From a plasmid, in the sequence record NZ_CP118109.1: a DNA stretch of 64,000 bases, one strand, 5' to 3'. The notes under the pieces were generated by a model. That model had not been told where the DNA came from, ran no database searches, and was given only the letters and a program-made list of their open reading frames with translations. Shown here piece after piece: positions 24,247-42,692 of the stretch (within the stretch, counting starts at the first letter, position 1; every line of letters starts with the position of its first letter). The position numbers were made by a program, and so were the translations under genes.

Positions 24247-24278
24247 ATAAAAAACAGCCCGCAGTATATGCGAGCTGC
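24247..24278 (-). terminator. Candidate partial intrinsic terminator or attenuator between the 1723-aa gene and the downstream genes.
   Basis: An interrupted GC-rich hairpin (CAGC...CGCA-TATAC-TGCG...GCTG) on the minus strand is followed by UUUUUU and then immediately the RBS AAGGAGG of the next gene. Confidence 0.35.
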
Positions 24279-24304
24279 TGTGTATTATCATATCATGTAA
24301 CGCA

Positions 24305-27300
24305 TTACAATTCTATAAATTCCACTCCATCTATTTCCGTAAATTTCGGGAACATCTTAACATAGTCTACAAGAATGCCACCTTTAGCCTCCTTGCTGTT
24401 CACCTGAATAATAATGGAATCAACATTGCCGTCATTCATAATGTCAGCCGTATAGATCATCCAATCTTCGCTGTTGATTGTGGCCATCGGCACTTCTGCC
24501 GTTTCTCCGTTTCGATATGCATACCGAATGACAGCTGCTGAACGATCCTCCGCCTTAGACATCTTCTTCGCTTTGATATCCAAAGTGTAGTCGCTGTATT
24601 CCAGATTGGCTGTGGAGAGCAGGATGCCGTATACGCCTCCCTCTGCAATTTGAAGGATAGAGTTATCGCCAGTACCGAGATCTTGCTGATTAATGAAGTA
24701 TAATCCGCTTGATAGATTCGCATTATATTCATTCAGGTGCTTGCCGTAAAGGAACTCCGGATTGCCAAGCACGTTAAGATCGGTTGGTTGCGGATCGTAA
24801 TACTCAATGATCGGCAGGATTCCGTATCCTTTATGCTTCGCTACAGCTGCTTGCACTTCAGCTTCACTAAATCCGTTTGGATTATTTGGAGTGGCTAGGA
24901 TACTGCGTGGGAGCCGAACAATAATGACTCCATTTTCCTGATATGCTTCTCCATCAAAGTATCCGATATCCCAATGGTAAAGTGATTCTTTATTTACCTT
25001 GGCAATGACCGCTTTAGATAATGCTTCATCCAGACCGCCGCCTCTTGTCCGGGTGTCCATAATGACCACATCTTTCTTAAGGCTGGAGTTGGCTTGGACT
25101 GTTACCTTCCCTAGTCGAAGCATGGATGGGTCATAGTTATAATCATCTGGCTCAAACCAGTAGCCGTCATCCGTATGGAAGATCGCTTGATTACGAGTTG
25201 TACCACTAATGAGCTGAGGTCCTGATTCCTCTTGTATCCAGATGGATGTGGGTCTTAGATAGACGTGCATTTGTCTAACTAATAACTCATTGCTTTGCTT
25301 CTCGGTCGTTGTGTACGATTCGCGCAGCGTCACATCTCCTGGAACCCATTCATGGAATCCATCTTGTGCCATCGTAAATCGGTGTCCTGGACTTGGGTTT
25401 AAATCCAGATGGAAGAACTCTCCGCTTCGATTGTATCCGCGGTACGTGTACCAATCTTCTACATAAGCATATCTCACAATCACTTCGTCCTGATCTCGAA
25501 TCCTATCGTGAAGATAAATGATACCTTTTTTCGCATCGATGTCGGAAACTCTTAGCTTACGAGACTGATTCATTCGGATCGCTTCGACTTCGAGATAGCT
25601 TACGCCAGCTTCGGATGCCATCGCAATTGGCGTGAATCCAACTTGAATCGCTTTATCATTAAGAATAACAGGATGCTCTCGATCAATCAGAATGACCGGC
25701 TCATTGTAGAACTCTTGGTTCGTATATTCCGGTACCGTATAATCCATGATGATTTCTTTTCGTTCTTCCGGATTCATCGGAGCGTAGGGAATCAGTTCTG
25801 GATAGTATACATAGAGCTGCGGCACTTTTTCACCAGCCTCATAATAAGGAAGGACGTATCGCTTCTTCACTCTGCCGTTCTTCACCCGTACATACCAGTT
25901 GTCGATCTCCGTGTTATCTCGCTCAACCTTTGGCTTCTCCATTTCGATCTTTTTATCATCATCAATCTTGATGGCCAGCACCGGTACTGACTCCAGCTCT
26001 TCGAAAGTTGTCCACGCTACAAGGTCAGCTGTAAGCCCTTCGATCACATTTTTTGTTCCCGGCTGCAGGATGTTTTTCATACGCATCCGGTTAACGCCTC
26101 GGTTTGCCTGATCCACCTCGAAGTATTCTCGGTTCTGCCAGTTGTAATGCCAGCGATAGTTCACTCGGTTCTCCCGATTGTTGCCTGCTGCATCCCCTCG
26201 CTCGATACGCAGAAGCAATTCATTTGCAGGAACGCTGGATGGAATGTTTAATTTCTCGAGGATGTTTCCTGTCCCGAAAAGAAGGCCCATTGATTTCATG
26301 CCTTCCTGCTTATAAATCTTATCTGTCCCTTCGAGTGGCAAGGTGAGTGGTGCTCCAATCGCAATGATCGGCGGCACATCAACCTCAGCAGAAACAGAGT
26401 TGTCACCGTTAATTCGAATACTTACGCCTTCACCGCTTGTTGCCCATATTCGATTCCAAGAGAAGTTCTGAATCTCAATCGGTATATTATCCTTTGTTAG
26501 CATTGGCGGGGTGAGTGTTACATTCATGACGCCGTCAGCCCTCATGACCGCCTTACCTGTGCCGGTAATATTCTTACGATTATCACTGGTTAGCCAAGGG
26601 GTGCTTAATGTCCCTCCTGCCTGGCTGCTGTTCGTAACTGCCCAAATGTAGCCATCGTTTCGAACCTCAGCCCGAAGGTCTACCGGATCACCGACAACAC
26701 TTGGAGTCGTAACAGTATAAGGCATACCATCACCATAGGTGTCTTTCATATATTGCTCAATGAGTGGTGTTAAGATATCGGCCGGCTTCTTGTCGGACAC
26801 CTTAACCCAATCGTTACTAGTCAGCGTCACGTTCTCCCAATCTGTACAGAGTTCGTGAACATCCAGCTCTGTGAATTTCAACTTAGACCATAGTGCATTC
26901 TCTTGAGAGATATTACAGATTCCATAAGAGCCTTTACTATAGGTGCTGTCTTCAGCTTCACATACCAATGTTCCTAATGCATCATCGGAAGTATCGTTAC
27001 CGATGTAGACCTGAAACTTACTACCGGCAACCACGACGCGAATCTTATATGTCTCCCCCGGCACCCATCCCTTTGCATTGTAGTTTACGTTGCTCGTAAT
27101 GTTCTCAAAGGATGTTTCTGTTCGATCTGATTTGTACTGGCAGTTTGGATGTAAAGCATCAGAGTAAGGCGGCAATGTTGTTGGACTGGCTTTGAATATC
27201 CCCTTCTTGCGGTTTTTAAATCCGTAGTCTGACATGTACTTTGTCATATTCGTTTCAGCTTCATAAGCGCTGTTAAATTTATTAGGGTCTGGATTCTTGT

Positions 27301-29476
27301 AATAGAGTACCGCTGACACCCCTCGCTCACCAACGAGTACACGACCTACACCGTTTCCGTTGGCTCCCGGCTCACGCATGAGCTGGTCTTTTTCCCAAAG
27401 GAAGCAGTAATATTCTTTATCGTTGTTAACTCGGAACTGAATCCCAATGACATCATCATCGTTGTGATCGTTAACCGTAACGCATGCAGAGAAGATGTAG
27501 TTGTCTTTATCTTTGTGAGCACCATTATAATATCCGCTGACTTCAATCTTATTTACAGTTAAAAGAAGCACGTCCCTAGCTCGGTTGTATTCCCATTTGC
27601 CACGAGTCTCATTGGAGCCAATAAAGTCCCATCCTGTAAATACATCAATAGGCTTTGCTGCAAACGCCTTCTCAATCGTTACGTTTTGACATACTTTCCA
27701 TCGTCCTTCGTAGCTCTGTGAAGTAATGATCTCACCTGATCCACTGGCTTCCCACGTGAAGTCTACTTCTGACTTCTGCTGCTCAGGATAGATCGTAACC
27801 TGATGTTCGATCGGATTGTTCTTCAGTTTGACGTTGCTTCCGCTGACTCCCGTCCACTTAGCGGTTGTCGTATTTGATTTTGCCTGTGCCGGTGAACTGC
27901 CGCTTTCTGCTACAATGCTTTCTACTAGTCCATTATCCGAAGCGGCTTGAGTTGTATAGAGCAGGTTCCCGCTGGCATCTTCAATCCTGAATACGGCATC
28001 CATCGGAAGTGAAGGCATGTCTACTGGCATAATCGATTGAATGAGGCTCCGTGCGTCTACATATCCGCCGCCAATATTTACGCCCAAGGTTTTATACTCT
28101 CCGGTAAACTCAAGCTTCTCATGGGCGAGGAGTGCATCTGCATTCATTGTCCAATCGCTTACGTATCCAAAGGTTAATGTGCGTTGGTTGTTCTTGTCAT
28201 CCAAATAGGTAGCAGATAATTTATAGTTGAATGCGTTACGCGCTCTTGGGTCATTCATGGAACGTTGCGGTACCGTAATTTTATATCCATCCTTATCTGG
28301 ATATTCCTCAATCGAATACACCTCTTGAATGTCCTCGGCTGCCCGCAGGTCTTCTGCTGTCACCTGCTCGTATGCACCGATCCCATTGATTACTCGGAGC
28401 TTGCCGCCCTCAATCAATCCAATATTCCCTTGATTAGAATAAAGCTCCACCGTTTTTGTGGTGCTCTTAAGTTCTGCATCTGGAGCAGGAGTTTCTACAT
28501 GATTGTAGCGAACCTTAAAGGTCTGCTCTTCATCCGTATTGCTTTGAATATAAATCTTCACCCAATAGATCTTAGGATTCTGCTCAGTCGTTTGAGCATA
28601 GATAAGACGCTTGAACTCAGGTCCTAGCAGGTTCCCATTTTCATCGGTTAGCTGAATTTGGCTGCCTGTGTAACGTATTACCTTCCCTGCTTCTCCTGGA
28701 TCACTATCGTAATGATACTTCAGCTCAAACTTATAAAACAGCGCACTGGATATTGTAGTTTCGTTCTGCGTAAATCGTCTAGTGATGTTGATATTCTTGG
28801 ATGGAAACCTGCTGTATGGCGGACGCATAATGATCGGCTGATCATCGGAAACCACATCAGCATAGGAGAGGACGCCGTTTGCATCCGGAACAACTAAGGA
28901 CTCAATCTGATCAATAGGGATTACATTTTCATTGACCGAAGAGGTGTCGATCAATGAAACGTTCTCTTCTACGTTGATCCGCGGACTATGGATATAAGCC
29001 AGATTGACATCGCCAGCTGGTACCTGTTCACCCACTCTGAGTGAAAGCTTGCCGTTAGGCAGCGCCTTATTGAACTCAAATAATTCAAGCCCATAATCTA
29101 ATCGCTGATCTTTATGATAATAAGCTACTGCTTTCATGGCTCCGTCAGCTGTTTGAACTTTCTGCTCTACTCCATCTTTATAGAAAACGACTGAAATATC
29201 TTTGTGACCTGATTTAGTCTGATAGCCGACAACCACGACTTTGTCGGATTGAATCCCATATTCCTGAATGTAATCATCAATCTGCTTCTGGAATGTTTCC
29301 TGCATACTCATTCCATCGCAAAGCGTCTGTCCGATTTCAGCTTGATTCATGGTTTCGTTAATCGTGAAGTAATCATCATATACAAATACCTTATCAAGCT
29401 CGGTCTGATCCTTTACTGAGATAATACATGCGATGCGATAAAAGTCTTTAATCACTTTTAATCTCCCTTCTTTCAC
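24305..29476 (-). CDS. Giant 1723-aa structural (fibre/adhesin-like) protein. It contains a jelly-roll / lectin-like block (YYCFLWEKDQ ... GSYGICNISQ) that recurs twice in the 2787-aa protein.
   Basis: The track start is the GTG at 29476. The functional start is more likely the next in-frame GTG 21 nt downstream, which has the SD AAGGGAG 7 nt upstream. The shared domain shows as block similarity to 29500-37863. Confidence 0.55.
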   Translation of the reverse strand: MKEGRLKVIKDFYRIACIISVKDQTELDKVFVYDDYFTINETMNQAEIGQTLCDGMSMQETFQKQIDDYIQEYGIQSDKVVVVGYQTKSGHKDISVVFYKDGVEQKVQTADGAMKAVAYYHKDQRLDYGLELFEFNKALPNGKLSLRVGEQVPAGDVNLAYIHSPRINVEENVSLIDTSSVNENVIPIDQIESLVVPDANGVLSYADVVSDDQPIIMRPPYSRFPSKNINITRRFTQNETTISSALFYKFELKYHYDSDPGEAGKVIRYTGSQIQLTDENGNLLGPEFKRLIYAQTTEQNPKIYWVKIYIQSNTDEEQTFKVRYNHVETPAPDAELKSTTKTVELYSNQGNIGLIEGGKLRVINGIGAYEQVTAEDLRAAEDIQEVYSIEEYPDKDGYKITVPQRSMNDPRARNAFNYKLSATYLDDKNNQRTLTFGYVSDWTMNADALLAHEKLEFTGEYKTLGVNIGGGYVDARSLIQSIMPVDMPSLPMDAVFRIEDASGNLLYTTQAASDNGLVESIVAESGSSPAQAKSNTTTAKWTGVSGSNVKLKNNPIEHQVTIYPEQQKSEVDFTWEASGSGEIITSQSYEGRWKVCQNVTIEKAFAAKPIDVFTGWDFIGSNETRGKWEYNRARDVLLLTVNKIEVSGYYNGAHKDKDNYIFSACVTVNDHNDDDVIGIQFRVNNDKEYYCFLWEKDQLMREPGANGNGVGRVLVGERGVSAVLYYKNPDPNKFNSAYEAETNMTKYMSDYGFKNRKKGIFKASPTTLPPYSDALHPNCQYKSDRTETSFENITSNVNYNAKGWVPGETYKIRVVVAGSKFQVYIGNDTSDDALGTLVCEAEDSTYSKGSYGICNISQENALWSKLKFTELDVHELCTDWENVTLTSNDWVKVSDKKPADILTPLIEQYMKDTYGDGMPYTVTTPSVVGDPVDLRAEVRNDGYIWAVTNSSQAGGTLSTPWLTSDNRKNITGTGKAVMRADGVMNVTLTPPMLTKDNIPIEIQNFSWNRIWATSGEGVSIRINGDNSVSAEVDVPPIIAIGAPLTLPLEGTDKIYKQEGMKSMGLLFGTGNILEKLNIPSSVPANELLLRIERGDAAGNNRENRVNYRWHYNWQNREYFEVDQANRGVNRMRMKNILQPGTKNVIEGLTADLVAWTTFEELESVPVLAIKIDDDKKIEMEKPKVERDNTEIDNWYVRVKNGRVKKRYVLPYYEAGEKVPQLYVYYPELIPYAPMNPEERKEIIMDYTVPEYTNQEFYNEPVILIDREHPVILNDKAIQVGFTPIAMASEAGVSYLEVEAIRMNQSRKLRVSDIDAKKGIIYLHDRIRDQDEVIVRYAYVEDWYTYRGYNRSGEFFHLDLNPSPGHRFTMAQDGFHEWVPGDVTLRESYTTTEKQSNELLVRQMHVYLRPTSIWIQEESGPQLISGTTRNQAIFHTDDGYWFEPDDYNYDPSMLRLGKVTVQANSSLKKDVVIMDTRTRGGGLDEALSKAVIAKVNKESLYHWDIGYFDGEAYQENGVIIVRLPRSILATPNNPNGFSEAEVQAAVAKHKGYGILPIIEYYDPQPTDLNVLGNPEFLYGKHLNEYNANLSSGLYFINQQDLGTGDNSILQIAEGGVYGILLSTANLEYSDYTLDIKAKKMSKAEDRSAAVIRYAYRNGETAEVPMATINSEDWMIYTADIMNDGNVDSIIIQVNSKEAKGGILVDYVKMFPKFTEIDGVEFIEL

Positions 29477-29489
29477 CTATGTAAAAAGC

Positions 29490-29512
29490 AATAGGGGTTT
29501 TATGCCCCTATT
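29490..29512 (-). terminator. Hairpin spanning the stop codon of the 2787-aa gene, with a U-run after it. Candidate attenuator between the two giant genes.
   Basis: 8-bp perfect stem AATAGGGG / CCCCTATT with the loop CAUAAAA, which contains the TAA stop. It is followed by GCUUUUUACA and then the RBS of the next gene. Confidence 0.4.
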
Positions 29513-32500
29513 ACCTTCAGGTAGATGAAGTTGCTTGCTGTTTCACCTTCCATACTGTAAGAAGCTGTTACAGTAATATTGCCTTGCTGTTCATTCAAAG
29601 CGGATATTGTCCACTCTGCTTGGCCATACACATTTGTCGTCATTTCAGAAGTAGTGATATCACCTTTCGTATCACGACAAACAATCTTAATTCTCTCCCC
29701 CGCCACGTTCTCCCAGTTCTCATTTCGAAGCGTAATGTAGACGGTTGCCTTATCATCCTGCCCCGCTTGAATCGCAGCCTTACTGGTTTTCACTTCAAGG
29801 AAGTAGCGATCCTTCATATTAGGAACATAGAAGTTTAGGAGTGTTTGGTTATTTAAGTCTTCGCAGATAATCTGATATGCGCTAATCATTTCAGCTCTAG
29901 GTACTGGCTTATCATAAACGTAAATTTCACCTGCACGGTTTGTTGGACCGCTGTAGATCAATTCTCCATCACGATATACATCCACGTTCTTGTTCTGAAT
30001 AGGATTGTTGTATTTGTCCAGTACCTTCCCTGTCACAAGGACCTTTCCTAATCCATCGGAAGATAATGTCTTTGGTGATACATTGATCTCTACAGATTTT
30101 GGTGTGTCCAATATCTTGTTGGTCAAGTAAAGGAAGCCCTTGTGATTATGAGTAAGCAGCGGATTCAGTGCGATTTCTTTTGCACGATAGAACGGACTAA
30201 ACGCATCGCCTTCATAAATTATCTCCATATCCTTCATCTTGTCTGGATCATAGTTCGAATGAAGAACAATCTTAGCGACATCATTATTCGGATCGTGGTT
30301 ATAGTCTACAAAATAGCTGTACATTAAGCTATATTCGAAGTTCATTATATCACGGTTTCCTATATTGTTCATGAACTGAATCGACGATCTCTCTGCATCA
30401 AATACATATTTGTCTGCTGAAATTGTAACGCCATTCAATTTAACAACAAGGCTGTCCGGGTCAATGCCTTTATAGGTGAGATAGTACTTACCATATCCGT
30501 TTCCAGTCAGCTCTTCTTTATAGGTTAATGTCTGCTGAATATCAATGAGCAAGCCATCCTCGTTAAAGACTTCTTCATAGAATGCCGTTTTGCGAAGGAT
30601 ATTCCCTTCATTATCCCTTATGATCATCGGAGCTCCCTGTTGTGGCCGAGGTTGAATGAGAAGCTGGTGATCAACCGGAGTCATTACATGGCGGGTCTTC
30701 TTCGCATATAGGTAGTGCTCTTTATCTTTGAAGTAGTAATAGCCATTATGAATCATTGGACTCCATGGCATCGGAGTGGCTTCTTTTACTCTGGCATTTA
30801 CCGCATAGCCTAATCGAGGTGTAAAGAAATCAGGCGAGATCATAGTTCGATCTGTTGCCGGGTGTGACCATTCCAGCTTCACACTGGCCGTGCCTTCATT
30901 TTCGAAATAGTTAGCGTTGAAGTCGTACCATTTGCCTCCTTGCAGATCAATGCTGCCCACATGAGTCATTGCAGATTGCAATACCCATTTATCAATGATG
31001 AGCTTCTTATCAATCCAGAGTCTGAATCCATCGTCTGAGGTGGAGTAGAAAGTATAGGTACCCGATACCGGCGCATAGATGCTTCCTTTCCAGTTGATTG
31101 CAAATCCATCGTTTGGTGTCCCCTCATCGGTCGGCTGAATCGGATCAATGTAAGGCTCTGGCTGATCCGGACTGTAAACGTCCACTGATGTATCCGGTGG
31201 TAAGTGCCCTCGGTTTATTTCACGGTAATCAAGCCAAGCAGGTTGCTCAGGCGTGGATGCCGGACGCGTAATAACGGTAGCCGATACCTTAGCATCATCA
31301 CTAGATGTAACGATACCTCCTGTTGTAAAGTGCGTCTTGTAATCACTCGTATCGTTCTTGATAAAGTATTGAAGCGACACATCACTGCGTGAGAATCCAT
31401 GAGCACTTAGGAAGCTATTTAATTCGCTACTGAAGAACTCAATCATTCGCTGGTCGTTAACCACCATCTCTTCGGTTCGCAGACTGTCGGTCAGCGATTT
31501 TGTCTTCTCTGCACTCATCGGTTTCCGGATCGTTTCTTTTAGAATTTTCGAGGTGCTGAAATTCCAGAAATACGTATTAGGCTGTGATCTTGTTACTGGC
31601 CCCCATGCCCCTGCAATTAATGCATCCGGTGCGTTGTCCACAATATCAAATTTTAATACGTCATTGGTATAGACTTGGATCGACTGTCCGACGACTCTCA
31701 CACGGATCTTGTTCGTTTGATTTCCTCCATAAGCCCAGGGTTCGGGAAGGTGAGCAAGCTTCACTTTGTTATAAGTGAGCTGTGCTGTTCCGTACTGAGA
31801 TGGGTTTGTACAGATGTTTCGATATATAGCCATCCCTCTTACATCCATGCCATCTGCATCCCACTCAAACGAATAGAAGTTTTTAGTGGCAGGGCTGAAG
31901 CGGAAGATTGCACCATACATATCATTATCACCTGAATTGATCTCTTGCACCAAGAACTCGAAATCATAATCCGTCATGTCTACATGTTCGGGATTGTACC
32001 ATCCAGAGCGGTAGCTTTGATTAGCAAGATTCGTTACTTTGTCATAACCAGCTTCGGGCGGGCCGTGCCAGTTTCCTACATCTGATCCAATGTTTTCATC
32101 GAACTTATTCCATACGCCAGTGAAGTTACTGGTGTCGATGACTTCGGATGAAGGATAGCTGATCTCCATCTCGACATTCAGATTAAATTTAATCTGATCA
32201 GGAATCACGGCCATCATGCGGAAACCGGCAGGTTCCAGGCTTTCCGTGAATGGCGACTGCGTACCCCAGTTGAAGTTAATGAAAGGATCGATGCGGGACA
32301 TCTTTACATTACCAAGGTAATTTTCTTTCTGCGGATCGAAGCGCTTGGCCACCCTGTAGGACTGCAAGTGAACCCAGTCTTTAGGCATGAGTAATTCTTT
32401 ATCCACCGTAAGAATACGACCGCTGATGCTATATTTCGTTTCATCCAGCTTAGCCCCATTTAAGTATACTTCTGGAGATAGCTGCGGCTCATTGGATAAA

Positions 32501-35500
32501 TCAAACGTATTATCAATCTCACCTACACCGTACCTGATTCGAATGACACCTGGCGTCACATAACTTCCTCTAATCTTAAATGTCTGACCATCAATGTAGT
32601 ACCCGTTTGTCGTGCTTTCTGGAATCTCCACATCATTTTTTCTAACCGAAAGAACCTTGTAAGGCGGTACATCATACATCGGGAAGTCTGTTTGCATTGG
32701 CAGCTCTTTGATCTTGATTCCGCCTGCAGAGTAATTCACCTCAATGACATCTTCATTTACAATTGGTGCCGTTATAATGACATCCTTACGATCCATAGCG
32801 AAAGCCGTAATCGAAGTGCCGTTCACTTTGACCGAAACAGAATCGGGGTCTGGCACATAGCTCAGACTAAGCACCTTACGCACCTCAGTGCCAATGTTGG
32901 TTGTCACCATATAAGTGGTCTGTGCATTGCCTTGGTTGAATACGCTGATGATCCATGTTCCCTCAATCGGCAGCGTGAAGGTCATTACTTCTGCATGTCC
33001 GTTGTCTCCAGAGTGCGTATACTGTCTGCAGCTTAAGAAATCGGATGCAGTTGTTCCCGTAGCAGACCAAGTTCCGTTCATATATTTAACACCAAACTGT
33101 TCACCGTTCGGTGCAGTCACAAGCAGGTCAGGATATTTATTTCCTGTATCAATCATGAAGTTGGATGCGATTTTAAGAATTGGCTTTCCTGCAGGAACAT
33201 ATACTGTCGCCACCTCGGACTCCGTAGCTCCTTGAATGGTTCCTCTCACCGGCGCACTGCCGGGAATGAACGTTTCGGTTGCAGGTAGTCCCGGTGTATT
33301 TACTGGAGCCACGGCTTCTTCAATGACAAACACCTGCTCTTTGATTTGAAAGCTGCCGCCGACAACAAACTTCTCAAGCACGTTCTCAATCTCTTGAGGG
33401 TAGCGATAGTACGTTCCCAGGAGCCCTGAAGAACTCCCCTCTGCTTGAGTTGGCCAGACAGAAACAAACGGATTGTTACTGATGACTTCAACGCCTTCAA
33501 TAGAAACATTATCATCATAGTCTTCCTGATCATCTGGATTGATGGAGATCGGATCGCTTATGGTTGTTGTCGTATTCAGATCTGCATGAAATCCTCTCTC
33601 ATCTTCATGCCAGCTTGTGTACCAATCGGTATACCAAACGTAGGCATCTTTGAAATCAGAGCTGAACGTAACCGTTTTTCCCCCGGCATCGATGTTGTAA
33701 CTTACACGCTCGTCGCTGACCTCGATATACGGGCCTGTAATGTTGACCATATTCTCAGGGATGAACACTGTATTCGTTGGAACGCCGACCATGTTTGCTC
33801 GACCAGCTGAGTCTCCGAAGAATGGGCGCTTTCCATTAACCTTTCCATATCCAATTTCTTTCCCTGTTGTATAAGGGATATATCTTGGATCTTCATCACA
33901 CTTCACCACAACACGATCATTCTGCCGATCCGTCTTGATGATGGGCTTGCCAGTCAACTGGTTAATAGGCAGTCCGCTGTTGCGGGTTGTGATTCCCGGC
34001 TGGCTTTCCCAATACATCCAAGTGAATGTCTGCTTGCCGATAGGCTCCTTGTACAGAAGATAATGAACGTTGTCATAGATGCCTGGCATCGGCGTGTTTA
34101 GATACGGCTCGATGTAATGTTCATGGTTTGGCGGGATATCAACAAAGCTATCTTCTTCACTATTAACGATTCCTTCATTCAGGATATCGGCAGGAAATAT
34201 GCCCTTGTACCACTCTGTTGTTTTGAGCATGAGTACATCGGACGGATCGTGATGAATGTCTACTGCTCCGCTATTCTGCCATTTCCAAGCGTCATACTGC
34301 TCGTTTACGGTTCCTGAGTTATCGTGGAAGGTTAATGTGTAGGTTGCCCAGTTGCCGCCCACAAAGTCCGTCAGAGGCCGTCCTGCGACCCATCCTTCAT
34401 AAGCAAATACATTATGCTCATAATCAATCTCGGTCGTTACAATCTCGGGCTCAGTCTCCCACATCAATAGTCGCTCTTGCGTGAAGTCCTTCTCCGCATC
34501 ATCAGCAGCTGGCTTCACTAGTGTAAAGGTTGGCACGACACTGCTTGCAGACATTTCTGGATGATCACTCTTGAATTTAGCTAGCTCTGCTTTAAAGAAC
34601 TCCTGAGCATTCGTATAGACTTCGGCAGCCGTATTCAAATCAATATTGTCGGGTGTAATTCGAATCTGGCCACTCTTCGTAAACTTCTGCGTGATTGGCT
34701 CTCCTGCATTAGGTGGATTGTTAGACTTCACCACGATGGCTCCCGTGACAGATGCTGTAATACTGCCGGCAGAGCTATCCGTTAATTCGCCAGCTACTTC
34801 TGTGACTTCATATTTCTGTGATGGCGAGCTGAGCTTGGATACGACTTGATTCTTCACGTATTCTCTACCAGAAGAAGAAATCGTTTTACTTCCGATACCC
34901 GTATATTTATCATAGCCGGTTTCCGGAATACGCCCCTCGATCTGATTCCACTCACGTACACGGATACCATGAAACTGAACAGCCTGAGAGATATTGCACA
35001 TCCCAAAGCTTCCTTCTTCCCAATCAGTATTGAACTCGAAGATTTTCGCATAGTCACCGCTTAAACTGTGGCGGATATGAAGCTCTACTTTCTTGCCCAT
35101 GGAGCGAACCATCATACTTTGCATGACATTGAAATCCCATCCATTGCCGCCACCTAGATCATTTACATTAACCCTACTCATTACTCCATCGGTTACTTTA
35201 TAGATGCGTCTATGCTGTGTCTTCCACCCCATGCTCTGTGTATACAGCCGCCATTCCGATTCGGTCTGATAGCTGGCTCCTCTTACGGATCGCGCGTTCC
35301 ATTGTTCTGGTGTCCCAGTGTAGATATTGAACCCTTCCAAGTTGTCACCTGTACGGTTTGAGTTTCTTGCACGCTCATGGCTTTCAATCAGCAGCATGTA
35401 GAAGTTCCGTTTATCTCTTGCTTTGAAGATTAGTCCGATAAGGTCATCGTCTGCAATACCTGATGAGTCGCCCGCAATTGGCTTGTAATCAAACTCAGCT

Positions 35501-37863
35501 TCGTAACTGGTATAGTCATAGTATTTCTTTGCCACAACGCCACTGAACCGGCTGAGGTTGTATGTGTCATAGACGTATCCGCTGCCGAGTCGCCAAGACA
35601 GCTCGGTACCGCTACCGATGAAGTCTCCTTTGTCTCCTCCAGAAACGAACAATCCTTTTACGTCACCTTCATCATTCACTTCCACATTCGCTTTCCAGTT
35701 GACGGCGTACTCCAAATCCTTTTTCGTGACTTGTCCTTCCACGGACATTTCAACTTCATAGTCCTTGATTGTTTCAAGCTTGCGGTCTTCTTTGATCGTG
35801 AACTCAAACTTCTTCGCTGGATAGGCATCAACACTCACCTTAAACGAAGACTCGTTATAGGTCACATAGAGATCGCCTTTATACTGAACGCTGTATTGGA
35901 ATGCGATTTCTGGATAGATCATAATGGAATGGCGCTTCTTTCCGCGAAGACGTGCTGCATATTGGAATGGTTGGATGCTGTTTTCTAGCTGAGGCTTTTT
36001 CACCAACAGGTCGTCTTGATCTCCGATCCCTGAGTGGAAAGCATAATTTGGATCTTCTTCCCCACTTGTCCGAGTATACATACTCGTCAGCATTCCTGGG
36101 TTCTCAATATAGTTCGGTTCTTTTTCTACATCCGTCCATTGTTCTGGAGAATCTTCTGTCGGAATATAAATCGATCCATCTACAGCCTCGGTACTGAACG
36201 CCTGAATCCGGTTCTCGGATACATCGACATAAATCTGTTGCTTCAGCTCCCCTGCTTTGCAGATGATTGTGGCTTTGCCATTCGTGATAGCTTCAAACAC
36301 AAGTCTGTTTGCATCTTCGTCTACGATATTAAGGCAACTGTTTTGCTGAATGTCCCATGTAATCGACCGGCTGCGACCATCATCATTTACGATAGCGGGA
36401 TAGATCGACTTTCGCTCTCCTGGTGCCATGAGTATATTAGTTTCGGCAAAGTGCAGGATCGGTTGCGTCTGCCCTACGATATGGATCGTGGCTTCAGCTT
36501 CGTTATCATAAACACTTGCTTTTAGTCGGACGACTCCCGAGCCATAACCACCAAGTACGATATCTTTTCCCTTGTTGTTCTCCAATTGAACAAATTCAGC
36601 GCCTTCTACAATGTTCCACTCAATTAAGTAGTCATTGTGATCCATGCCAGCCAGTGTATTTTGATATTGGGCAGAAAGAGATATCTTGTCCCCTTGCACG
36701 ATCGTTGCCTCTTCAGGCTGAACATGGAAGCGATACAAATGTTTATCTCGTATCGGCAGCTTTATGGTTGCCTCCACCACTTCGCTTGTCTTGCTAACAA
36801 GACGAACTTCCATCGTTAAAATACCTGAAGTACTAGGGATGATCATAAAAGTTCTCGTATCTAATTGGAGACTTACTTCACCGCCTTGCACATCATACTC
36901 ACAGGTGGAAGTCTCGAAGATATCTCCATTCGTATACTCTGGCATCAAGTGGATTTGAAAAGGCTGACCTACATAAAAGTTTTTACTATCCAAGGAAGTA
37001 TGGATCACTGCTTTTGGCTTCTCTACACGGATCGGTGTTTCAGCGATGAATGTTCCTGCATAGTTAAAACGAATGTTGGTTTCACCAATACTCATGCCTT
37101 CAATCCAAATCTTATCTGATTCAACAGCAGAAACTCTTGCGATATTTCGGTTATCAATGATGCCCTCAATAAGATCTGCCCTAACACCTAGAACACCTTC
37201 AACATCAAGAAAAATCGGAACAGGAATAGCCTCCCGATGAGTTACAACGATCTCATTTACATTCACGCTTCCTATGACATTCTCAATCAGAGAAACATCA
37301 AAACCAAAGACTTCAATACCTTCCTCAGCAAGTTCCATAATTACATTCTCTTTATTGCTGATAATTTCAAGGGATCGAATATCATAGCGAAGAGGGAACT
37401 CTATTTCACTATTGCGCTCAAGCAGCTGCTTAAGCTCAGTGCGGTTTAAAATCTTTGCTGTCTCTTTGGTGCCGTGGATGCTTGTGTCGATCTGCTCTGC
37501 TGTTATCCATTTTGTTTCGGTTGTTATCGGTACAGCTGCTCTGGATTCGATCCAAGCATAAACGGAATCAATGCCATCCTCATTTATTACGATTGATACA
37601 TTAGGGTCTAGTGAGATCGCCGTATATCCTTGGATGACACTTCCCTCTTCGAGGTCAATAACTACGCTATCTAATTCGATATGAGCTTTGCTATCATAGC
37701 TTGTGTGCTGTTCATTAAGCACTCCGCGCCCCTCATATAACTTATCGTTATACCTCTCTCCATTTGGCTTCTCTACGTCAGCATAGACGGCGAATTGAAA
37801 TGGGTGCTCCCACGTTGGGATAATCTCTGCTTTGATTTTATAATCGAAATTGATTATGGCCAT
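29500..37863 (-). CDS. Giant 2787-aa structural (fibre/adhesin-like) protein with N-terminal Big_2-type Ig-like domains, two lectin/jelly-roll-like blocks (...NFYMLLIE...GSFGMCNISQ and ...NFYSFEWD...), and a PA14 domain.
   Basis: The PA14 signature is GFAINWKGSIYAPVSGTYTFYSTSDDGFRLWIDKKLIIDKW. Several Big_2-like ...ATI.V/...IYVDV segments are present. Its ATG overlaps the stop of the upstream gene (TAATG). Confidence 0.65.
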   Translation of the reverse strand: MAIINFDYKIKAEIIPTWEHPFQFAVYADVEKPNGERYNDKLYEGRGVLNEQHTSYDSKAHIELDSVVIDLEEGSVIQGYTAISLDPNVSIVINEDGIDSVYAWIESRAAVPITTETKWITAEQIDTSIHGTKETAKILNRTELKQLLERNSEIEFPLRYDIRSLEIISNKENVIMELAEEGIEVFGFDVSLIENVIGSVNVNEIVVTHREAIPVPIFLDVEGVLGVRADLIEGIIDNRNIARVSAVESDKIWIEGMSIGETNIRFNYAGTFIAETPIRVEKPKAVIHTSLDSKNFYVGQPFQIHLMPEYTNGDIFETSTCEYDVQGGEVSLQLDTRTFMIIPSTSGILTMEVRLVSKTSEVVEATIKLPIRDKHLYRFHVQPEEATIVQGDKISLSAQYQNTLAGMDHNDYLIEWNIVEGAEFVQLENNKGKDIVLGGYGSGVVRLKASVYDNEAEATIHIVGQTQPILHFAETNILMAPGERKSIYPAIVNDDGRSRSITWDIQQNSCLNIVDEDANRLVFEAITNGKATIICKAGELKQQIYVDVSENRIQAFSTEAVDGSIYIPTEDSPEQWTDVEKEPNYIENPGMLTSMYTRTSGEEDPNYAFHSGIGDQDDLLVKKPQLENSIQPFQYAARLRGKKRHSIMIYPEIAFQYSVQYKGDLYVTYNESSFKVSVDAYPAKKFEFTIKEDRKLETIKDYEVEMSVEGQVTKKDLEYAVNWKANVEVNDEGDVKGLFVSGGDKGDFIGSGTELSWRLGSGYVYDTYNLSRFSGVVAKKYYDYTSYEAEFDYKPIAGDSSGIADDDLIGLIFKARDKRNFYMLLIESHERARNSNRTGDNLEGFNIYTGTPEQWNARSVRGASYQTESEWRLYTQSMGWKTQHRRIYKVTDGVMSRVNVNDLGGGNGWDFNVMQSMMVRSMGKKVELHIRHSLSGDYAKIFEFNTDWEEGSFGMCNISQAVQFHGIRVREWNQIEGRIPETGYDKYTGIGSKTISSSGREYVKNQVVSKLSSPSQKYEVTEVAGELTDSSAGSITASVTGAIVVKSNNPPNAGEPITQKFTKSGQIRITPDNIDLNTAAEVYTNAQEFFKAELAKFKSDHPEMSASSVVPTFTLVKPAADDAEKDFTQERLLMWETEPEIVTTEIDYEHNVFAYEGWVAGRPLTDFVGGNWATYTLTFHDNSGTVNEQYDAWKWQNSGAVDIHHDPSDVLMLKTTEWYKGIFPADILNEGIVNSEEDSFVDIPPNHEHYIEPYLNTPMPGIYDNVHYLLYKEPIGKQTFTWMYWESQPGITTRNSGLPINQLTGKPIIKTDRQNDRVVVKCDEDPRYIPYTTGKEIGYGKVNGKRPFFGDSAGRANMVGVPTNTVFIPENMVNITGPYIEVSDERVSYNIDAGGKTVTFSSDFKDAYVWYTDWYTSWHEDERGFHADLNTTTTISDPISINPDDQEDYDDNVSIEGVEVISNNPFVSVWPTQAEGSSSGLLGTYYRYPQEIENVLEKFVVGGSFQIKEQVFVIEEAVAPVNTPGLPATETFIPGSAPVRGTIQGATESEVATVYVPAGKPILKIASNFMIDTGNKYPDLLVTAPNGEQFGVKYMNGTWSATGTTASDFLSCRQYTHSGDNGHAEVMTFTLPIEGTWIISVFNQGNAQTTYMVTTNIGTEVRKVLSLSYVPDPDSVSVKVNGTSITAFAMDRKDVIITAPIVNEDVIEVNYSAGGIKIKELPMQTDFPMYDVPPYKVLSVRKNDVEIPESTTNGYYIDGQTFKIRGSYVTPGVIRIRYGVGEIDNTFDLSNEPQLSPEVYLNGAKLDETKYSISGRILTVDKELLMPKDWVHLQSYRVAKRFDPQKENYLGNVKMSRIDPFINFNWGTQSPFTESLEPAGFRMMAVIPDQIKFNLNVEMEISYPSSEVIDTSNFTGVWNKFDENIGSDVGNWHGPPEAGYDKVTNLANQSYRSGWYNPEHVDMTDYDFEFLVQEINSGDNDMYGAIFRFSPATKNFYSFEWDADGMDVRGMAIYRNICTNPSQYGTAQLTYNKVKLAHLPEPWAYGGNQTNKIRVRVVGQSIQVYTNDVLKFDIVDNAPDALIAGAWGPVTRSQPNTYFWNFSTSKILKETIRKPMSAEKTKSLTDSLRTEEMVVNDQRMIEFFSSELNSFLSAHGFSRSDVSLQYFIKNDTSDYKTHFTTGGIVTSSDDAKVSATVITRPASTPEQPAWLDYREINRGHLPPDTSVDVYSPDQPEPYIDPIQPTDEGTPNDGFAINWKGSIYAPVSGTYTFYSTSDDGFRLWIDKKLIIDKWVLQSAMTHVGSIDLQGGKWYDFNANYFENEGTASVKLEWSHPATDRTMISPDFFTPRLGYAVNARVKEATPMPWSPMIHNGYYYFKDKEHYLYAKKTRHVMTPVDHQLLIQPRPQQGAPMIIRDNEGNILRKTAFYEEVFNEDGLLIDIQQTLTYKEELTGNGYGKYYLTYKGIDPDSLVVKLNGVTISADKYVFDAERSSIQFMNNIGNRDIMNFEYSLMYSYFVDYNHDPNNDVAKIVLHSNYDPDKMKDMEIIYEGDAFSPFYRAKEIALNPLLTHNHKGFLYLTNKILDTPKSVEINVSPKTLSSDGLGKVLVTGKVLDKYNNPIQNKNVDVYRDGELIYSGPTNRAGEIYVYDKPVPRAEMISAYQIICEDLNNQTLLNFYVPNMKDRYFLEVKTSKAAIQAGQDDKATVYITLRNENWENVAGERIKIVCRDTKGDITTSEMTTNVYGQAEWTISALNEQQGNITVTASYSMEGETASNFIYLKVIGA

Positions 37864-39876: not shown

Positions 39877-41025
39877 TTAGGACCAGGTTAGCCCGTAGTT
39901 ATATAATTTTGAATTTAACGGCAGCTCTATTTTGATACAGATCTTATTGTCCTTTGGACTAATCGAATCGCTGAAATAGAATAACGTATCAGGAGTGATA
40001 CTTTCCCACGTCACTCCGTTATCCCGTGAGATATGGTATAGAGCCCCCTCTGCTTCAGCAGATACGATCGCTTTGCTTGGGATGGCTTCGGCAATCTCTG
40101 GCGTGGTGATAACTACTCCAGCTGGATTATCGACTGGGTTTAAGCCTGCAGCTACATAGAAATAATCGTAAGTGTTATTATAGTATCTCGACTGAATTGT
40201 AATATATGGAGTAGCGCCGCCATACCCCTGGTTAAGATTTCTGTTGCTTACAATTTGCAGGCCGTTTATCCATATGTTCGCTACGCCTAACTCATTGGAA
40301 GCAATCAATTCAAACTCTTTCGTCGCATCAAATGTTCCGGCAGGGGCTAGTATTGTATTAGCTCCGAGGGTAATAGATCCATTTGGATTCGCTCTAATCC
40401 TATAGAAACTCCCTACATTAGCCCTTTCTGCAGAACAAATTGTTAGCTCCAAGAAGCCCTCTGGCTGGCCTTTTGTTCTGAGTTTTACTGTTATTGCACG
40501 AGAAGCAGTAAGGTTTCTTCTTAACGTGGCATTCCCGGATATCCAACTTGTGGTGGTAACTACTGTCGTTGTACCATCGGGATTCACTTCGAATCTTGCA
40601 TTGGATGCTGTGAATCCAAGGGTAGTAGGAGAAACATCACCTTCCCATTTAGCTGTCCATGGTACGACTGATCCAAGTTGTGGAGTTACTTCCCCGAGTG
40701 CTGCATCCAGTTTATAGCTTGAGCTTCTGCTAGCATCAATACCTGAAGCATCCAGAAAGTCTTCGAAGACCATGTTGGTCAGCTTATATCGTTTGCTTTG
40801 AGCAATGACATTGAGCTTAGCATTTGCCTTCATAATGTTGACGGCATCTTGAATGATAAGCTTGTCTGCCATGTACACTACATTCTGAATATAGTCTTCC
40901 AGCATATCAACACGCTCTTTTACACTCTCGTAGTCGCCTTGGACTCCTACCCCGAGTGTGGTGTTCCTCATCTTCTTCTCATCTGAGGCTGCCTTATTGG
41001 CCGTTCCATAACTAATTACATCCAT
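39877..41025 (-). CDS. Fibre/receptor-binding-like protein, family B paralog 3 (MDVIS N-terminus, KYKLTNMVFEDFLDASGID motif). Its C-terminal module is related to the RCC1-family C-terminal domain (ends YGLTWS).
   Basis: It shares the N-terminal MD(I/V)IS..KA motif and the KYKL.D.V.D.F.D..G.D.S block with the ORFs at 45399, 52289 and 46831. Its C-terminal LYHISRDNGVTWESITPD...YGLTWS parallels YFVSIDDGETWKEVNPD...GLSYSWV. Confidence 0.5.
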   Translation of the reverse strand: MDVISYGTANKAASDEKKMRNTTLGVGVQGDYESVKERVDMLEDYIQNVVYMADKLIIQDAVNIMKANAKLNVIAQSKRYKLTNMVFEDFLDASGIDASRSSSYKLDAALGEVTPQLGSVVPWTAKWEGDVSPTTLGFTASNARFEVNPDGTTTVVTTTSWISGNATLRRNLTASRAITVKLRTKGQPEGFLELTICSAERANVGSFYRIRANPNGSITLGANTILAPAGTFDATKEFELIASNELGVANIWINGLQIVSNRNLNQGYGGATPYITIQSRYYNNTYDYFYVAAGLNPVDNPAGVVITTPEIAEAIPSKAIVSAEAEGALYHISRDNGVTWESITPDTLFYFSDSISPKDNKICIKIELPLNSKLYNYGLTWS

Positions 41026-41039
41026 CGTTTAATGCCTCC

Positions 41040-42692
41040 TTAAGTCCAAGAATAAGATAAGCCGTATAATTCAAGTCCGTTTTCAAGAATCGTTTTTATT
41101 TTTAATTCGTTACCTTCCGGTAGATCAGAAAGATTCGTCAGCTCATCTGGAGTTACTTCTTTCCATGTGGTTCCATCATCTCTGGAAACATAGTATCCCG
41201 GACTTGTTGGATTCGTTAATTCTGCTTCCAAAGATAGAGATTGAACTGTCGGAGTAGCGACACTCATATCAACGAAAGCATCTACACCTCGAAAAGAAGG
41301 AGATATCTTCTCGTTTGTCGTCCACATGACTGTTGCTACATAAAAGGTGATTCCATCGAATGGAGCCAGCTGTTCAGCTGTAAGAGCCTTTAACTCTTCG
41401 GATGTCATCCCCTTGGCTGCTACATCGTTGACGTCTGTTTCAGAGATAGGAGCATCAATCCATGTTTCACTTTCCACATCAAATCTCTTCCAGGTTTCCT
41501 TATCTGTAGATAGGAAGTATCGAATGCCGGTGGAGGCTGAAACAGATTCTTGAGCTTCAAGTCCTCGTATGTTCGGAAGATTGCAGGTTCCGATAATCTT
41601 AAACGGCTGATCTATTGTGTAAATCAAATCCTTAATCTCATTTTTAAATTTAAGGAAATTCGTATTACTTTCATCTTGCAGCATTGCCGGATAACCTGTT
41701 TTGTTTTCTATATCGTTCATGGCTATACGTCCTGTAAAATAAATGTCCATTGAATCAGTGATGACTAAGAAAGCACCGTTTTGTGATGTTGCATCAATAT
41801 CATATGCTGGAGGCAGCGGGGTGCCGTCCTCATCCATAATCATTTCATTCCAGACTAATGAATTAGTTAAATTACCAATGCCAAGCGTGCCTTGGGTGTT
41901 GTTGCCCGTTGTATGCACTTTATTATCTAGATCTAAAGCAATAGTATTATTGTATCCTCCAACTGCCTTTTTCACATTATCTTTCATATAAACGAGGCTG
42001 GCTGAATTAGCACTTGTTCCGTATGCTAGCCCATATCCACTTCCACATCCATATAATTTGTTCTCAAACGTTAAAAACAATGAATGATTTAGTCCTGGCG
42101 ATATTTCTTTTACTCTCTCTTTTAGTTCAGGGAATACTTCTGTGAATTGATTGGGCGCACTATCTCCTATTCTATTAAACAAATTTGATCCAGAGGCCAT
42201 TACTCTTCCATCAAGCATTATTACCCAGCTAAAGCCAGGTCCTGCATAAACTTTATGAACGCCATCTATTACTTTAGTCCATGTAGGCACACTGCTAGTA
42301 TGATTCAGCCCCAATTCCCCGTTGCCATTAAATCCCATAGCCCATAAAGAATTATCTTCTTTAATAGCAAAGGAACAATCTGTTCCGGCTGCACAATATT
42401 TGACGCCTTCCATTATCTCTGTTATGACGCTATATTGCTGTTGGCCTTGCTCCAAGAATATGCCATTAGCATTGTTATTATTAAGACCCACCCCATAAAG
42501 TTTATCATTTATAATGAGTAATGTGTGATTGGGGCCTGCTGATACTTGCCTTGGCTTATAAGGAATTAATGTTGGGACAGCAATCGAGCCTCCAGTTGCC
42601 CACCCAAACATTCCTTTACTGTAACTATTATTTCCAACAAACCATAACTGGCCATCAATATCTTCAAAATAACTGCCTCTAGCATTAGCCAT
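41040..42692 (-). CDS. RCC1-repeat beta-propeller protein (family C paralog) with a conserved C-terminal module ending GLSYSWT. Putative receptor-binding protein.
   Basis: Multiple G.N..GQLG/ G.G..GY.LA-type blade motifs. C-terminus is YYVSRDDGTTWKEVTPDELTNLSDLPEGNELKIKTILENGLELYGLSYSWT. Confidence 0.6.
   Translation of the reverse strand: MANARGSYFEDIDGQLWFVGNNSYSKGMFGWATGGSIAVPTLIPYKPRQVSAGPNHTLLIINDKLYGVGLNNNNANGIFLEQGQQQYSVITEIMEGVKYCAAGTDCSFAIKEDNSLWAMGFNGNGELGLNHTSSVPTWTKVIDGVHKVYAGPGFSWVIMLDGRVMASGSNLFNRIGDSAPNQFTEVFPELKERVKEISPGLNHSLFLTFENKLYGCGSGYGLAYGTSANSASLVYMKDNVKKAVGGYNNTIALDLDNKVHTTGNNTQGTLGIGNLTNSLVWNEMIMDEDGTPLPPAYDIDATSQNGAFLVITDSMDIYFTGRIAMNDIENKTGYPAMLQDESNTNFLKFKNEIKDLIYTIDQPFKIIGTCNLPNIRGLEAQESVSASTGIRYFLSTDKETWKRFDVESETWIDAPISETDVNDVAAKGMTSEELKALTAEQLAPFDGITFYVATVMWTTNEKISPSFRGVDAFVDMSVATPTVQSLSLEAELTNPTSPGYYVSRDDGTTWKEVTPDELTNLSDLPEGNELKIKTILENGLELYGLSYSWT

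Follow-up and report, generated by a model that had tools for sequence, protein, structure and literature searches.

Two giant genes lying side by side in a 64,000-nucleotide stretch of the plasmid sequence record NZ_CP118109.1 (the window, to which nucleotide positions refer unless another locus is named) raise the question of what such large proteins do and how the two are related. We call them gpA and gpB. Our analysis makes it likely that both are virion-exposed host-recognition (adhesin/fibre) proteins of a jumbo myovirus or phage-plasmid resembling Bacillus phage 0305phi8-36, with the closest known relative in Paenibacillus. We favour this reading because of the tail/baseplate context of the genes, their synteny with and homology to ORF163/164 of 0305phi8-36, the detection of those orthologues in virions by mass spectrometry, the glycan-binding modules of the two proteins, and the way these modules behave as cassettes.

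The original prediction, made from the sequence of the window, had described two adjacent genes of 2787 and 1723 amino acids occupying 13.5 kb, with a lectin-like block in both and PA14 and Big_2 domains in the larger. Those observations proved largely real and were partly confirmed; the interpretation placed on them was supported in part. Both open reading frames (ORFs) are present at these lengths, spanning 13,559 nt together on the minus strand. For gpB, 1723 amino acids is the length of the maximal ORF; a second GTG at 29455 gives a protein of 1716 amino acids and is more likely the true start, since AAGGGAG precedes it at the right distance and a homologue 97% identical to gpB (P0010) has the same length of 1716. 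The nearest relatives of gpA and gpB are TCA2_4565 (94% identity) and TCA2_4566 (97% identity) of Paenibacillus sp. TCA20, which lie on a 206-kb contig, and one close database homologue of gpA carries the name 'PA14 domain-containing protein'. A query with the exact gpA sequence matched no record.

The PA14 domain of gpA is borne out by independent searches. The Pfam PA14 family (PF07691) matches gpA 2243-2339 with 73.9 bits against a cut-off of 24 (E 1.5e-20), the peptide quoted in the original prediction lies within this match at gpA 2260-2293, and a phmmer search of the PDB returned the PA14 dyads of clostridial RsgI polysaccharide sensors (6qdi, E 3.5e-36; 6qe7, E 1.5e-31). In the RsgI PA14 structures a sugar-binding Ca2+ is held by an Asp-cis-Asp/Asn pair in strand 5, a conserved Tyr and a polar CBL2 residue (PMC6852018). 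When gpA is aligned to 6qdi, DD 2277-2278, Y2319 and E2321/N2322 fall opposite D87/N88, Y129 and N131, and D2277, D2278, Y2319, E2321 and N2322 are invariant across 4 gpA orthologues, so that a Ca2+/carbohydrate site is retained at the sequence level. These residues support the view that the gpA PA14 is a genuine glycan-binding-type module with a DcisD-type signature. The anti-sigma-I factors RsgI3 and RsgI4 (6qe7, 6qdi; Grinberg et al. 2019, PMC6852018) carry contiguous tandem PA14 domains on a membrane sensor, whereas gpA has a single PA14 in which the first ~35 profile positions are not adjacent to the rest.

The lectin-like block, which had been said to occur twice in gpA and once in gpB, is homologous in all three places. 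BLASTP aligns gpA 805-960 with gpB 673-858 (E 3e-7) and gpA 1953-2006 with gpB 647-699 (5e-5). A hidden Markov model (HMM) of the block, named blk and built from ~40 members of the gpB family, finds gpA 804-962 (E 2e-13) and 1917-2112 (E 3.4e-10), and it has no match besides gpA and gpB among the 256 six-frame ORFs of the window. In profile-profile comparison by hhalign, copy 1 of gpA matches the gpB family at 99.6% (E 1e-24), copy 2 matches gpB at 98.8%, and the two gpA copies match each other at 95%; the three are mutually ~23-25% identical. The shared block is thus significant in a proper alignment, but the motif by which it was first recognized is a composite: NFY.[LF].W occurs at gpA 1995 only, each protein has a single GS[FY]G[IM]CNISQ (gpA 951, gpB 849), and the second gpA copy reads GAWGPVTRSQ.

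Comparison of the whole proteins as profiles gives a shared unit (gpA 698-1062 and 1928-2175 against gpB 569-963) somewhat larger than the block first noted, and nothing common to gpA and gpB beyond this single module of ~350 amino acids. A second candidate shared motif, DWYT...H.DLN (gpA 1367-1430 against gpB 1281-1360, BLAST E 0.7), was rejected as not significant, having a profile-profile probability of 0.9%. Orthologues from Alicyclobacillus, the B. cereus group and Oceanobacillus have each copy of the block at a matching relative position, and some gpB-type proteins (Oceanobacillus, Moorella) have two copies. Because all three copies keep their positions in other Bacillales orthologues, the duplication is, on these alignments, ancient and one of module-level paralogy or shuffling, not of a giant gene. 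The original claim of 'duplication and divergence between them' therefore holds as an old duplication at the level of the module, but is not supported for the genes as a whole, which share one module.

What kind of module this is was addressed with a profile of 16 sequences (A1). Against the PDB, the A1 profile matches the C-terminal L-type lectin domain of thrombospondin-1/2 and COMP (1ux6, 1yo8, 2rhp, 3fby; E 4e-7 to 2e-6), and both signature stretches, DDDxxG..F....FY...W and Y..G..G....SQ.....S.L, align to thrombospondin/COMP. An AF2 model of the block from the A1 alignment is a jelly roll (pLDDT 86.5, pTM 0.87). The top four Foldseek matches of this model in the PDB are thrombospondin/COMP structures, with 1ux6/1yo8 first (E 6e-9 to 1.5e-7), followed by YesU, CBM66, VIP36/ERGIC-53, legume lectins and the CBM2 of the phage J-1 Dit. 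The fold is common among tail and virion proteins in a viral structure library, including the PA14 protein of phage PaBG and the ReqiPepy6 tail fibre, and we count these proteins and J-1 Dit as precedents for a host-recognition role. An exhaustive HMMER search with A1 found 822 clusters carrying the block, 205 of them at E<=1e-10, mostly proteins of 1000-3500 amino acids and often with several copies; in a sample of these relatives Pfam applies the labels 3keto-disac_hyd (DUF1080) or TSP_C.

The lectin-like character of the block is thus supported by the profile match to thrombospondin/COMP and by the predicted fold, but its membership of the ConA-like group depends on the measure used: TSP_C scores 22.2 bits in gpB against a Pfam cut-off of 25.6 and has no match in gpA (the orthologue P0003 gives weak matches to TSP_C and 3keto-disac_hyd), whereas family profiles and the jelly-roll fold both place it there. 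The description that suits it best is a divergent ConA-like clan member close to TSP_C (PF05735) and DUF1080/3keto-disac_hyd (PF06439). The phage block shares with these families its aligned DDDxxG...FYxxxW and GxxGxxxxSQ motifs (profile E 4e-7) and its fold, and differs from them in an insertion of ~100 amino acids in the middle and a downstream helical extension. The evolved Dit of phage J-1 of Lactobacillus casei (PDB 5ly8), one of the fold neighbours, is likewise a phage structural protein with carbohydrate-binding jelly-roll cassettes, although the proteins that host them and the families differ and there is no sequence relationship. The modules of J-1 Dit are nested insertions.

The placement of the pair in a virion comes from its counterparts in known phages. 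By sequence homology, gpA is the counterpart of ORF163 of 0305phi8-36 and of CDS0050 (MT50, 1363 aa) of the Moorella phage MTATph1, and gpB that of ORF164 and of CDS0051, which is adjacent to CDS0050 in MTATph1; the original prediction had not recognised this correspondence. By tblastn/BLASTP, gpA 2379-2767 matches ORF163 (E 3e-28), and the C-terminal region of gpA also matches MT50 (E 2e-39) and phrog_21285 (E 7e-29). In gpB, BLASTP aligns 137-525 (E 3e-14) and 1126-1561 (ORF164 651-1025; E 2e-44) with ORF164, tblastn gives E 8e-37 for ORF164 and E 2e-67 for MTATph1, and the core recurs in other Bacillus jumbo phages, with tblastn matches in phages WH1, Edson and KLEB27-3. The records of gp163 (tail fibre protein) and gp164 (virion structural protein) both carry the note 'identified as virion protein by mass spectrometry', and by analogy gpA and gpB would be located in the virion as well. 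The ORF162-164 region of 0305phi8-36 has been described as subject to domain-swapping and 'hyperplastic', and was put forward, by inference and not from experiment, as the main determinant of host recognition through adsorption (Hardies et al. 2007, PMC2147016).

The likeness to 0305phi8-36 extends to gene order, with an ORF162-like gene upstream, and to the architecture of large proteins with swapped central domains: the C-terminal ~400 amino acids of gpA match gp163, including its intimin/invasin-type Ig domains, and the N- and C-terminal parts of gpB match gp164. Identity is only ~26%, and the variable parts differ, gp163 having FN3 arrays and gp164 a central vWA domain where gpA and gpB have the PA14 cassette and ConA-type lectin blocks. 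Neither blk nor an HMM built from 9 canonical PA14 copies (pa14full) matches ORF163/164 at E<=0.01. The sole pa14full match in 0305phi8-36 (positions 46-128) is to ORF154 (L001 3188-6826), a virion tail protein named 'beta glucosidase', and from these matches the virion protein that carries the PA14 module appears to vary between members of the lineage. BLASTP of gpA against ORF163 gives a weak block-like similarity (E 1e-5) and aligns the end of the gpA PA14 with ORF163 1126-1206 (E 1e-8).

These comparisons divide both proteins into a conserved scaffold (gpA ~560-760, 1150-1470 and 2355-2787; gpB ~135-525 and 1126-1561) and exchangeable parts. In place of gpB 526-1125, which includes the lectin block, ORF164 has a shorter stretch containing vWA. 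For gpA, BLASTP aligns residues 1175-1470 with CDS0050 704-953 and residues 2355-2760 with CDS0050 959-1342, leaving 5 residues in CDS0050 where gpA has 884; because both flanks align to nearly adjacent segments, gpA 1471-2354 amounts to one insertion relative to the Moorella phage protein. With its absence from MTATph1, and with ~270 extra residues inside the cassette in P0003, these insertions and deletions are the same kind of domain substitution that Hardies et al. took as the mark of a host-recognition determinant.

The surroundings of the pair point the same way. Long ORFs of the window lie almost all on the minus strand, and most of the window has a G+C content of 42-47% (overall range 38-47%). 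Genes upstream, in the direction of coding, encode a probable hub/tail-lysin of 2145 aa that includes a glucosaminidase domain, a baseplate-wedge protein, several members of tail-protein PHROGs, three RCC1-propeller proteins and the ORF162-like virion protein (phrog_21059); downstream are the virion structural families phrog_20243 and phrog_21108 and a vWA-containing protein of 1660 aa. An ORF162-like gene (480 aa), gpA, gpB and genes for 352 and ~820 aa follow one another in this order also in 0305phi8-36, the B. cereus group and Alicyclobacillus; contigs of the latter two encode a ~480-aa protein, a giant protein with PA14, one of ~1700 aa that TSP_C matches faintly, and proteins of ~352 and ~820 aa. 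Homology and a conserved tail/baseplate neighbourhood thus both assign the genes to the ORF163/ORF164-type pair, and by its gene content the window is clearly a tail/baseplate/fibre module of a jumbo phage of the 0305phi8-36 lineage. We discarded the idea that the pair are bacterial surface adhesins with no link to phage, since genes of phage virion PHROGs surround them and their order is that of sequenced phages. When the 13.5 kb were compared by megablast with the phages of INPHARED, nothing matched at the nucleotide level; the phage relationship is therefore visible at the protein level only.

At least 36 homologues of gpB lie on Bacillales contigs of 140-216 kb (140-260 kb when all contigs with a homologue are counted), and the metagenomic and genomic contigs carrying them are mostly 197-216 kb long. 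In PLSDB, 26 plasmid records of 140-417 kb have a gpB homologue (25 of the 26 being non-mobilizable): Bacillus accounts for 19, among them B. thuringiensis, B. cereus G9842, B. licheniformis and B. mycoides, and Clostridium for 5, with Paenibacillus rhizovicinus and Cytobacillus making up the rest. Because of these plasmid records, the 0305phi8-36 lineage seems to persist widely as extrachromosomal prophages (phage-plasmids). One related locus (L008) is plasmid p1 of B. thuringiensis lyx16.

The 884-aa cassette of gpA may have an unusual internal construction. On gpA, pa14full gives two collinear, complementary pieces with lectin block 2 between them: profile positions 16-38 at gpA 1852-1875 (iE 1.9e-5 in a single-sequence search; 0.005 against the 256 ORFs of the window) and positions 36-132 at gpA 2246-2342. 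The same two-piece split is found in P0002, P0003, Alicyclobacillus and Oceanobacillus, and in all orthologues the contiguous PA14 match starts at profile position 35-41, with a Pro-rich linker just upstream. GLLGTYY, the candidate first strand and an instance of the canonical opening motif GLxGxYY, is invariant in gpA orthologues, and the Alicyclobacillus and B. cereus proteins have it at a corresponding place. Of the two cassette boundaries drawn from the comparison with the Moorella phage, it lies 9 residues in from one, and the PA14 body stops 5 residues short of the other. We give an even chance to the reading that the gpA PA14 is a discontinuous 'Russian-doll' domain in which large nested insertions part strands 1 and 2 from each other and from the remainder. 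On this reading GLLGTYY at 1480 would form strand 1, followed by ~355 amino acids of inserted beta-sandwich domains, and RIDPFINFNWG at 1857 would form strand 2, followed by ~370 amino acids that include a complete ConA-type lectin module before the body at 2243-2349. The whole unit would behave as a single cassette in a conserved scaffold, its arrangement kept across jumbo phage-plasmids of several Bacillales genera.

Structure prediction did not confirm a discontinuous PA14 in gpA, and the GLLGTYY strand was not placed with confidence by AF2. A complete PA14 is a 10-strand beta-sandwich. In the RsgI structures its first two strands form the margin of one sheet (PMC6852018), and by analogy a PA14 body that does without them is conceivable. 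Were the nested architecture true, the PA14 would be a platform presenting other lectins beside its own sugar site, and it would be of interest for domain evolution. The extra residues of P0003, a gpA orthologue of 3056 amino acids, lie between the positions matching gpA 2176 and 2190, which points, from this one alignment, to the stretch between lectin block 2 and the PA14 body as a hot spot for domain insertion.

Outside the cassette, gpA has Ig-like regions at both ends. The Big_2 domain ascribed to it has no Pfam counterpart in gpA itself (PF02368: no match at E<=0.1 for the whole protein or at E<=5 for segment 180-570), but the orthologue P0003, 52% identical, has Big_2 at 393-461 (28.6 bits against a cut-off of 22.8), and that segment aligns to gpA 381-449. 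The repeats of this region are ~90 amino acids long and weakly related (R1/R4 and R3/R4 ~60% by hhalign, E ~1e-4), and phmmer of gpA 180-570 against the PDB, aimed at structures containing Big_2, returned nothing meaningful. Residues 196-552 are probably Ig-like, with the name Big_2 resting on orthology. At the other end, scanning gpA 2340-2787 by itself gives Big_1 (PF02369; 44.5 against 34.9 bits) and Invasin_D3 (PF09134; 41.2 against 33) above their cut-offs, with both below cut-off in the scan of whole gpA (29.6 and 27.9 bits); this agrees with the 'C-terminal intimin domain' of gp163. Short repeats of the form V.VNG..I....Y.......I.F (for example VKVNGTSITAF, VYLNGAKLDETKYSISGRILTV and VKLNGVTISADKYVFD) occur at gpA ~1676-1830 and 2473-2510 (~32374-32837 and 30334-30447), give weak Pfam matches to Shr-like_HID (E 0.02), and are probably small beta-sandwich spacer domains.

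Table 1. Features of the gpA/gpB locus; residues are those of the protein named, nucleotides those of the window
Feature	Residues	Nucleotides	Strand	Remarks
gpA		29500..37863	-	ATG start, 2787 aa; from ORF list and translation
Ig-like repeats, about four in tandem	gpA 196-552	36208..37278	-	Big_2-like by orthology only
Lectin-like block, copy 1	gpA 787-975	34939..35505	-	ConA-type jelly roll, TSP_C/DUF1080-like; motifs DDDLIG 805, NFYMLLI 820, GSFGMCNISQ 951
PA14 cassette (PA14 and nested modules), 884 aa	gpA 1471-2354	30802..33453	-	Insertion relative to the Moorella phage homologue
GLLGTYY, candidate first PA14 strand	gpA 1480-1486	33406..33426	-	Sole G[LIVM].[GA].[YF][YF] match in gpA
Beta-sandwich in first PA14 insertion	gpA ~1551-1642	32938..33213	-	PPC / subtilase C-terminal-domain-like
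Candidate second PA14 strand region	gpA 1849-1875	32239..32319	-	YLGNVKMSRIDPFINFNWGTQSPFTES; ~370 aa from rest of PA14
Lectin-like block, copy 2	gpA 1890-2118	31510..32196	-	Between two PA14 pieces
PA14 main body	gpA 2243-2349	30817..31137	-	DD...YFEN Ca2+/sugar-site signature
Conserved C-terminal region	gpA 2355-2787	29503..30801	-	Common to ORF163 and MTATph1 CDS0050; ends in two Big_1/Invasin_D3 Ig-like domains (~2590-2787)
gpB		24305..29476	-	Maximal ORF, 1723 aa, GTG start; from ORF list and translation
Lectin-like block, reference copy	gpB 591-886	26819..27706	-	Conserved across whole gpB family
Most conserved core of gpB family (phrog_28704)	gpB 1126-1561	24794..26101	-	phrog_28704 E 5e-23; dense invariant columns in A2 alignment
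Terminator-like hairpin		24253..24279	-	Just 3' of gpB stop; 11-bp stem, T-run; pattern scan, consensus match only

Together, these results suggest how the two proteins would work. The conserved scaffold segments would anchor gpA and gpB in the baseplate/fibre apparatus, and glycan-binding cassettes would be plugged into this scaffold: in gpA the Ig-like repeats, one ConA-type lectin module and the PA14 cassette holding a second lectin, and in gpB a single lectin module. The Ig-like repeats would act as spacers, and the invasin-like Ig domains of gpA may also be counted among the binding modules. Several weak lectin sites, including a PA14 site that is presumably Ca2+-dependent, would then bind polysaccharides of the host's Gram-positive cell wall, and such multivalent binding would position the baseplate for contraction. 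As far as the domain families indicate, both glycan binding and its dependence on Ca2+ are to be expected.

Several points weigh against this reading. The conserved part of gpA is C-terminal, and many tail fibres are anchored by the N-terminus. About half of gpA (560-790 and 975-1470) and a large part of gpB could not be assigned to a fold or family from Pfam, the PDB or NCBIfam: whole-length gpA and gpB profiles matched nothing in the PDB besides PA14 and thrombospondin, NCBIfam gave no match to either protein, and Pfam on ten segments at E<=5 added to the domains already named only weak hints of PPC and Shr-like_HID. Virion presence and sugar binding are argued for gpA and gpB from their orthologues and domain families. 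Relatives of the block include 3keto-disac_hyd of Pfam besides TSP_C, leaving room for an enzymatic role. Moreover, the conspicuous curly fibres of 0305phi8-36 have been attributed to ORF119/129/131 (Hardies et al. 2007, PMC2147016); a 'long fibre' morphology is therefore not implied for gpA and gpB, and a curly-fibre identity for them was set aside, the literature assigning those fibres to proteins other than ORF163/164.

If the enzymatic hint were followed, the ConA-like blocks or the uncharacterised regions of gpA would be catalytic, and the proteins would be virion-borne polysaccharide depolymerases or hydrolases rather than pure adhesins. We think this unlikely, as the best sequence and fold matches of the block are non-catalytic lectin domains (the thrombospondin C-terminal domain, CBM66, VIP36/ERGIC-53, galectins), and the Pfam, NCBIfam and PDB searches found no glycoside hydrolase or lyase family in either protein. 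Alternatively, the lectin-like and PA14 folds could serve protein-protein assembly instead of receptor recognition, making gpA and gpB a structural scaffold or decoration of the baseplate periphery or a fibre shaft. The gpB block is conserved nearly family-wide with many invariant residues, which would be unusual for a fast-evolving receptor-binding tip, and added complexity of structure is a known trait of the lineage (Hardies et al. 2007, PMC2147016). A purely structural role nevertheless strikes us as improbable: the Ca2+/sugar-site residues of the PA14 are retained and invariant among orthologues, the region shows a swapping of cassettes that is typical of host-range determinants, and the characterised members of these module families bind carbohydrates.

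The remaining alternative concerns origin, namely that gpA and gpB are paralogues produced by duplication of one giant gene followed by divergence. Their adjacency on the same strand and the significant block common to both speak for it, but outside the one module of ~350 amino acids there is no profile-profile similarity, DWYT...DLN not being significant, and the two proteins belong to separate orthologue series, ORF163-type for gpA and ORF164-type for gpB. This origin is already largely refuted and we regard it as very improbable. The reading of gpA and gpB as host-recognition proteins is thus the one we retain.

Several further features of the locus were observed. Between gpA and gpB a hairpin AGGGG-CATAAAA-CCCCT (29483-29509, minus strand) overlaps the gpA stop and is followed by ATTGCTTTTT; it was seen by eye, is absent from the terminator scan list, and might be a weak attenuator between both genes. 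Three RCC1-like beta-propeller paralogues of 550, 550 and 738 amino acids (41040-42692, 43173-44825 and 46831-49047, all on the minus strand) lie in the tail-fibre part and have N- or C-terminal segments (phrog_31511/38477/34867) in common with the neighbouring ORFs at 39877-41025, 45399-46784 and 52289-53794. This sharing of segments suggests that they form a family of fibre or baseplate proteins that can be exchanged for one another. The 2145-aa protein (57019-63456, minus strand) aligns with phrog_20474 along 1700 residues, carries a mannosyl-glycoprotein endo-beta-N-acetylglucosaminidase domain at its C-terminus, and is probably a tail hub or tail-associated lysin. PHROG 21108 is a single virion protein of ~1867 amino acids, encoded by one 1867-aa gene in a B. 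cereus-group locus (L003); here it corresponds to two ORFs overlapping by 4 nt (18089-20002 and 13110-18092, minus strand), the 637-aa ORF covering profile positions 1-604 and the 1660-aa ORF positions 910-1287 plus the vWA domain. This two-ORF state could reflect gene fission, domain gain or a frameshift.

That phage receptor-binding proteins gain carbohydrate-binding modules by cassette exchange is a well-established principle. The region was flagged as a host-recognition hot spot in 2007, and close homologues are present in public databases. What is new is that the domains are mapped explicitly, that the block, present in three copies, is identified as a thrombospondin-C/DUF1080-like lectin, that scaffold and cassettes are given boundaries, and that a nested PA14 is put forward as a candidate. 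Most likely, gpA and gpB are receptor-binding genes of a type ordinary among phages, although their domain layout is unusually elaborate. Our findings assign a testable role, that of multivalent glycan adhesins in an under-studied Bacillales jumbo phage/phage-plasmid lineage, to 13.5 kb of otherwise 'hypothetical' sequence, and the map of conserved scaffold and swappable binding cassettes would provide a basis on which to predict or engineer host range in this lineage.

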